DNA of 64,000 nt from Octopus vulgaris (lineage: Eukaryota): assembly GCA_951406725.2 (NCBI GenBank), contig OX597820.1, forward strand, positions 11,098,001 through 11,162,000, written 5' to 3'. Shown piece by piece: positions 19,974 to 20,667 of this stretch. The position numbers and the translations under genes were made by a program. Each line of letters begins with the position of its first letter. Position 1 is the first letter of the stretch. Under the pieces are notes generated by a model. That model was given only the letters and a program-made list of their open reading frames with translations, was not told the DNA's origin and searched no databases.

Positions 19974-20155
19974 CAATACAGTTCTATATTTAAGAGATGG
20001 GGAATGATGTACATTATTTACATTATTTACATTAGATGGATGTTTGTCCTCATCTTGTTTGTTGTTAACACATTCGGCTGATATACCCTCCAGCTTTCAT
20101 CGTGTGCCTTGAGGAAATTTCGAACCTGGGTTCTCATTCCTAAGGTATTTTTCGA

Positions 20156-20188
<33 letters not shown>

Positions 20189-20221
20189 CATTATTATTAT
20201 TATTATTTATTATTATTATCA

Positions 20222-20282
<61 letters not shown>

Positions 20283-20427
20283 CATTATTATCATCATCAT
20301 CATCATCATCATCATCATTATTATTCAGGCCACTGCCTGAATATAGAACTGTATTATCTAATCGCTACAGAGCGGACATTAGACTTCCATGGAAACACAT
20401 AGAGAAACTCCATCAAACAGACAGTGA

Positions 20428-20508
<81 letters not shown>

Positions 20509-20667
20509 TAATAATAACATCGAAAAATACTTTAAGAATGGGAACCCAGGTTCGAAATTTCCCCAAGACACCTGATGAGGCTGGAGGGTACATAAGCCGA
20601 AACGTTGTGTTAACAACAAACAAGATGAGGATAAATATCCATCAAATGTAAATAATGTAAATAATGT
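19974..20667. mobile_element. Non-autonomous Penelope-pLTR-like element, two inverted arms each containing (AAT)n
   Basis: Left arm 19974-20335 is the reverse complement of right arm 20422-20667; AATACAGTTCTATATT near 19975 is inverted at 20340-20355. Confidence 0.8.
20567..20611 (+). ncRNA. Minimal type-I hammerhead ribozyme, intact core
   Basis: GACAC-CTGATGA-GGCT(ggagggtacata)AGCC-GAAA-CG-TT-GTGTT: stem I GACAC/GTGTT, stem II GGCT/AGCC, palindromic ACGT stem III, predicted cleavage after GUU. Confidence 0.8.

Follow-up and report, generated by a model that had tools for sequence, protein, structure and literature searches.

Between positions 19975 and 20667 of the window (the whole 64,000-nucleotide stretch of Octopus vulgaris DNA analysed here) two arms lie in opposite orientation, each with an AAT tract and a hammerhead ribozyme motif or its remains. 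The first-pass annotation described a fold-back element with an intact ribozyme, so the question is what kind of insertion left this arrangement and whether its hammerhead can be expected to work. We are fairly confident that the locus consists of two head-to-head copies of a high-copy repeat and that it likely represents a single inert insertion of a pseudo-LTR (pLTR) of a Penelope-like element (PLE).

Two copies of a high-copy repeat and their ends

The features of the main locus and of a second locus in the same window are as follows.

19975-20339 (365 bp), minus strand: left copy of the repeat, pLTR-like and tailed, the inverted partner (alignment; loose contig ends at 19975-19977)
19975-20010, minus strand: 3' tail of 34-36 nt (36 nt on this copy), left copy only (alignment)
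20067-20108, minus strand: decayed hammerhead of the left arm (C3, U4 and G10.1 changed; a 4-nt deletion removes stem III)
20160-20325, minus strand: internal AAT tract (ATT/ATC), 166 bp, with GAT variants
20326-20339, minus strand: 5' leader of the left copy, 14 nt, the same as the right leader at 12 of 14 positions
20322-20343, unstranded: perfect 22-bp palindrome where the two copies meet head to head, with a stem of 9 bp and a loop of 4 nt
20340-20417, plus strand: 78-bp spacer, made of the last 16-18 nt of the tail and 60 bp of the element that come after the tail
20418-20667 (250 bp), plus strand: right copy of the repeat, without a tail (alignment; loose contig ends at 20667)
20418-20431, plus strand: 5' leader of the right copy, 14 nt
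20432-20515, plus strand: internal AAT tract, 84 bp
20567-20611, plus strand: minimal type I hammerhead motif (core reading, descriptor, fold)
1840-1958, minus strand: second locus, inverted copy with a tail, its 5' truncation falling in loop II of the hammerhead (window self-alignment)
1956-2180, plus strand: second locus, tail-less copy with a 69-bp AAC/AAT tract (window self-alignment)

The non-repetitive parts of the arms (20004-20160 against 20515-20675) match at 87.7% of 162 columns when aligned in inverted orientation (E 3e-52 in the window), and a global alignment of arm with arm gives 133 matches, 13 mismatches and 5 gap columns. The two oppositely oriented arms, about 88% alike and with an AAT tract in each, are therefore real, as first described. 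A single MITE-like fold-back they are not, as two copies of a repeat are present head to head, both beginning at the same base of the repeat. The palindrome at their junction takes in 4 nt that are common to the start of the spacer. The layout at 1840-2180 matches that of the main locus, with a different junction (the inverted and forward copies overlap by 2-3 nt at 1956-1958) and a different left-arm length. Since a second locus has the same layout, the repeat is a family and not a one-off; our base-by-base reading of this family covers four copies at two loci.

Public sequence data contain most of the interval 19820-20820 under two species labels; four metatranscriptome records with about 0.1 of the words were left out of the depth sums that follow. 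Depth summed over public contigs in this interval reaches 1.19-3.49 million on the arms and 32-64 on the unique flanks in X1; the corresponding values in X2 are 0.26-1.05 million and 4.5-13. Summed contig depth is not copy number, so the arms-to-flanks ratio of more than 10,000 is read only as a copy level of the order of 10^4 or more. The same contigs mark the ends of the repeat. Among the loose ends listed, those at 19975-19977 run into unrelated flanks in all four runs, those at 20667 come from 158 contigs in X1 and 148 in X2, and X1 and X5 contigs continue from the right arm at 20665 into the tail of the left copy. The repeat has two fixed 3' ends, 34-36 nt apart, and the tail is restricted to the inverted copy at both loci. 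No target-site duplication abuts the ends at either locus; only 5-6-nt matches were found, away from the ends. Runs X5 and X11, guessed to be RNA, cover the arms and leave the unique-flank bins mostly without depth (none in X11, only the bins adjoining the locus ends in X5), which neither indicates nor denies transcription.

The hammerhead motif

The right arm carries every base of the hammerhead core, with CUGAUGA at 20572-20578 and GAAA at 20599-20602. Stem I has 5 bp and stem II 4 bp, stem III is a loop-less ACGU palindrome (20602-20605), and cleavage is predicted after U20606 of the GUU triplet at 20604-20606. The motif had been called intact, which is true of the core only: in this copy both the unpaired A that precedes stem II in the family and the fifth pair of stem II are missing, and its stem III has no loop. 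Position 20594, where this fifth pair is lost, is C in 97% of the X1 family depth, and the extra-A variant is seen from 20578 among the loose ends listed. At the CG of the family's stem III, 29% of the X1 depth shows a C-to-T change and 25% a G-to-A change, as in neutral CpG decay. The ribozyme of the left arm is decayed, in agreement with the earlier reading, with two bases of the core changed and 4 nt deleted across stem III; in the forward hammerhead of the second locus the stem III palindrome is broken.

A descriptor requiring the core, stems I and II of at least 4 bp and a palindromic stem III, composed after the motif had been seen, has one match in the window and none in 60 dinucleotide-simulated windows. 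The isolated 45-nt right motif folds to stems I and II (MFE -8.8). Stem I is absent in contexts of 61-141 nt, and folding is no better than that of shuffles (z -0.31 to +0.33). Rfam returned no hammerhead at gathering and none among its eight matches at E up to 10.

Minimal PLE hammerheads have been described with a short stem I, an extra base before stem II and a palindromic 15.2-16.2 (PMC4209133), and opposite-strand pairs 100-700 bp apart are already on record from Schistosoma in the same source. The motif resembles these metazoan examples (Cervera and de la Pena, 2014; PMC4209133) in its core, 5-bp stem I, G10.1-C11.1 and palindromic loop-less stem III, and the family also shares the unpaired base before stem II. 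It differs from them in stem II, which has 7-8 bp in the hammerheads of that paper and 4-5 bp here, and in the loss of the unpaired base from the right copy. A single minimal motif showed no detectable cleavage and dimers cleaved at a low level (PMC4209133).

Since stem III is a loop-less palindrome, cutting requires a second sense copy. In the fold of the whole locus on the plus strand the hammerhead bases pair with the left arm, with a mean probability of 0.79. The proposal that the element could cleave a transcript crossing it is not supported, and such cutting is unlikely: the motif is dimer-dependent, one sense copy is present, 79% pairing to the antisense arm is predicted, and the copy has lost the A and a stem II pair. 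We predict that the right hammerhead is silent at this locus, which, if transcribed, would more likely form a long duplex than cut. The locus cautions that a hammerhead core in such repeats does not imply cutting. A comparison of 150 out of 183 candidate peptides from 2.3-40 kb with Pfam, covering a possible host gene, gave no match above the cut-off and three weak ones.

Two other repeats of the window contain decayed hammerhead-core motifs, both on the minus strand. The one at 36835-36890 has an ACGU stem III followed by CA/TA repeats, and the one at 49355-49410 is interrupted by a SINE.

Origin of the insertion

Insertions of PLEs are described as carrying at their 5' end a copy that is inverted and 5'-truncated, and a 30-40-bp tail that is often found at one end only (PMC8557442). 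Their pLTRs are about 200 bp long, with an optional 31-bp tail reaching into the ORF's start, their inverted junctions carry palindromes, and microhomology joins without a target-site duplication have been described (PMC3846280). The locus has the corresponding set of pLTR features, namely a minimal type I hammerhead, an optional tail in the 30-40-bp range and a head-to-head junction with palindrome or microhomology. The likeness to PLE insertions extends to a terminal repeat of about 200 bp with a head-to-head inverted copy, a tail of 30-40 nt at one of the ends, a hammerhead upstream of the reverse transcriptase (RT) starts, a palindrome or microhomology at the junction and an optional target-site duplication (Arkhipova et al., 2013, PMC3846280; Craig et al., 2021, PMC8557442; Frangieh et al., 2024, PMC11167929). 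What sets the locus apart from these insertions is that no ORF lies between the repeats beyond a 78-bp stub and that a long AAT tract lies inside the repeat. The earlier suggestion of a solo-pLTR-like, Penelope-type origin is supported by the tail on the inverted copy only, the two 3' ends and the junction palindrome. The repeat likely belongs to the PLE class, and its working as a PLE end is well supported.

A Penelope-like 5' inversion is also present, as had been suspected, although in a different place: the whole left arm is inverted, and not the 16-bp piece at 20340-20355 to which the inversion had been assigned. That piece does match 19975-19990 exactly in inverted orientation, but it is merely the start of the 78-bp spacer.

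PLEs cut both target strands with an ATT preference and use uncut RNA as template, and the tail corresponds to the stretch that separates two internal RT starts located about 111-118 nt inside the ORF (PMC11167929). By analogy with Poseidon of Anolis we infer a two-cDNA mechanism for this locus. An element-encoded RT/GIY-YIG protein would act in trans and cut AT-rich DNA on both strands. Two cDNAs would be primed on uncut RNA from the two internal starts, the tailed one at 19975 and the tail-less one at 20667, and each would run back through the hammerhead and the tract to a common 5' limit. The right cDNA would extend further, by 78 nt that lie downstream of the tail, either by a template jump or on the template of a deleted mini-element, and the two cDNAs would then be joined through a 4-nt microhomology at the fold-back. 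The tract would move inside the repeat and afterwards shift its length in place. Measured from the hammerhead core, the 3' ends are about 95 and 130 nt away, and the copies cross the cut site, as the uncut-RNA model requires; since these ends are 61 and about 95 nt past that site, it was uncut RNA that was copied. Insertions with two ends and a fixed 5' limit, in their thousands, would make a large natural data set for studying how PLEs insert.

The depth of the spacer in X1 is 4,700-7,400, about 100 times that of the flanks and about 300 times below that of the arms. Among 1.84 billion proteins the frames of the element have a sole match, P0003, a single degenerate peptide from another contig which is known without its DNA context. 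P0003 matches the arm frame at 10 of 18 positions and then the spacer frame at 19 of 26. This match ends at codon 26, where both arm copies begin, and the sequence of P0003 differs afterwards. Since the frames in P0003 follow in the order arm, then spacer, the spacer is element sequence following the tail. It is possibly the start of the parent ORF, as a candidate coding sequence only, because in known PLEs the sequence after the tail is the start of the ORF (PMC3846280). Pfam found nothing for P0003 or the spacer, and neither was scored by a profile of nine Neptune-type PLE N-termini. A template jump and a deleted mini-element would each account for the spacer, and we favour neither.

In full-length PLEs the terminal repeats flank an ORF for a telomerase-like RT and a GIY-YIG endonuclease, and searches for such a parent ORF failed to find one. 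Three protein searches with the element frames returned only P0003; the search for a long ORF carrying these frames yielded 1 and 93 candidates, none of which scored, and Atlas gave no usable match. Pattern searches at the DNA level in metagenome, viral and prokaryote collections had no match in four scans, as expected for an animal repeat.

The window contains a 5'-truncated, broken Penelope-like relic at 50680-53070 on the plus strand. It preserves the end of an RT, a linker with the Neptune pattern of Cys residues, a GIY-YIG domain (PF01541) and a 3' region of units of about 70 bp in tandem; TA repeats bound it on both sides, and full-length relatives were found. A hammerhead-like motif within it (52968-53001, plus strand), read by eye, has a U3-A8 core swap, a 6-nt palindromic stem III and a decayed stem I, and it failed the descriptor. 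We rejected this relic (50.7-53.1 kb) as the parent, its 3' region being unrelated. The end of the tail matches the end of the relic's GIY-YIG frame (51812-51827) over 16-17 bp, with E 0.23 in the window and 9e-4 against the relic alone, which is probably chance.

Among the other explanations we regard a non-LTR retrozyme as the least implausible, though unlikely. Here the unit would be about 350 nt (tail, spacer, leader, tract, hammerhead) and have tandem masters elsewhere; dimeric hammerheads would cut their transcripts to circles and PLE proteins would reinsert these, making 20340-20667 a near-complete permuted monomer. This segment does begin within one tail and stop just short of the next, like one turn of a tandem array; its size suits the monomers of about 300 bp described for such elements (PMC7229834), and retrozymes are reported to stem from pLTRs and to leave monomers (bioRxiv 10.64898/2026.07.22.740005). 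The repeat also resembles animal non-LTR retrozymes of both sources in being short, non-coding, AT-rich, hammerhead-bearing and related to pLTRs. Against it stand the depth of the spacer, about 300 times below that of the arms, and the different continuation of P0003 after it. Neither of the two loci in the window is arranged head to tail, unlike the retrozymes described in those sources, whose hammerheads are canonical; that of the repeat is minimal, with a 5-bp stem I and no loop 3. Finally, neither end of the repeat coincides with the cut site. The retrozyme-like family envisaged at the outset is therefore not what the two loci point to, given the absence of head-to-tail units at both and ends located beyond the cut by 61 and about 95 nt.

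Two independent insertions of one short repeat, the second beside or within the first, appear still less probable. The arms differ from each other at 13 of 146 positions (about 9%) and from a third copy at 17, and since this divergence is as large as that between loci, separate insertions would be compatible with it; the family is very abundant, and PLEs tend to insert beside older copies (PMC6765202). Chance insertion would hardly produce an exact head-to-head abutment with a palindrome at the junction and a tail on one side only, or the same layout at a second locus. The reading as a DNA fold-back transposon or MITE, with a hammerhead-like motif in its terminal inverted repeats by chance, has the long inverted arms around a short spacer in its favour, and yet it is largely refuted and we give it hardly any weight: the arms end at different positions, 34-36 nt apart, the junction and the left-arm length differ between the two loci, target-site duplications are missing and the spacer is far rarer than the arms.

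The AAT tract and other repeats of the window

All three long copies of the repeat contain the AAT tract internally (69, 84 and 166 bp, with differing variant units), and element sequence lies on both sides, the leader upstream and the arm downstream. The claim that the tract is built into the repeat can thus be upheld, and its internal position in three of three copies, with variant lengths and units, indicates that it moves with the repeat and then changes in place. AAT as a target site was ruled out, as element sequence flanks the tract in all three copies and the 3' flanks are not AAT. In the window, the family supplies three of the six AAT-class tracts of at least five units and three of the four longer than 50 bp, both being small samples. 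It is plausible, from three copies in one window, that the family seeds AAT microsatellites.

AAT/AAC stretches have previously been tied to template jumps of Penelope (PMC3846280), and seeding of microsatellites by mobile elements is known from the CR1-L3 and Rex LINEs of squamates (PMC6050309). In those LINEs as here, a mobile element brings a simple repeat to new sites; the LINEs carry theirs as a 3' tail, whereas here the tract is internal to a pLTR-like repeat, close to its 5' end. We speculate, tentatively and with more doubt than belief, that the family is a self-standing, pLTR-sized parasite of Penelope, present in tens of thousands of copies, that has its fixed 5' end 14 nt ahead of the tract and is the main source of long AAT tracts, the spacer being the fossil of an RT jump from the 5' end of the RNA past the tail. 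If most long AAT tracts do come from the family, this would be microsatellite seeding by Penelope from an internal tract, and the family would bear on marker design and on the abundance of simple repeats, which is very high in this genome.

The literature searched on Penelope, hammerheads and microsatellites, also in octopus and cephalopods, showed no description of the family, which Repbase or Dfam may contain. An Octopus vulgaris repeat annotation lists 31 recently active Penelope-like families and leaves ribozymes unmentioned, and its supplements may include the family (PMC13282606). The locus is real and ordinary for the PLE class, and is new only as a family and for the internal tract.

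Short imperfect repeats around an ATCGCGG core lie on both sides of the locus (19583-19653 and 21243-21277), with a 35-bp match 1.6 kb apart that spans it; they may represent an older element, interrupted by the insertion of the locus. Elsewhere in the window, a LINE at 27633-31900 on the minus strand looks young, with an uninterrupted frame of 1042 codons for endonuclease and RT; upstream of it, an ORF1-like frame gives a weak Myb/SANT-like match. Positions of about 39100-46400 are occupied by roughly 7 kb of a degenerate tetranucleotide satellite of the GAAT/GAAG type, whose strand skew is extreme (GC skew about 0.97).
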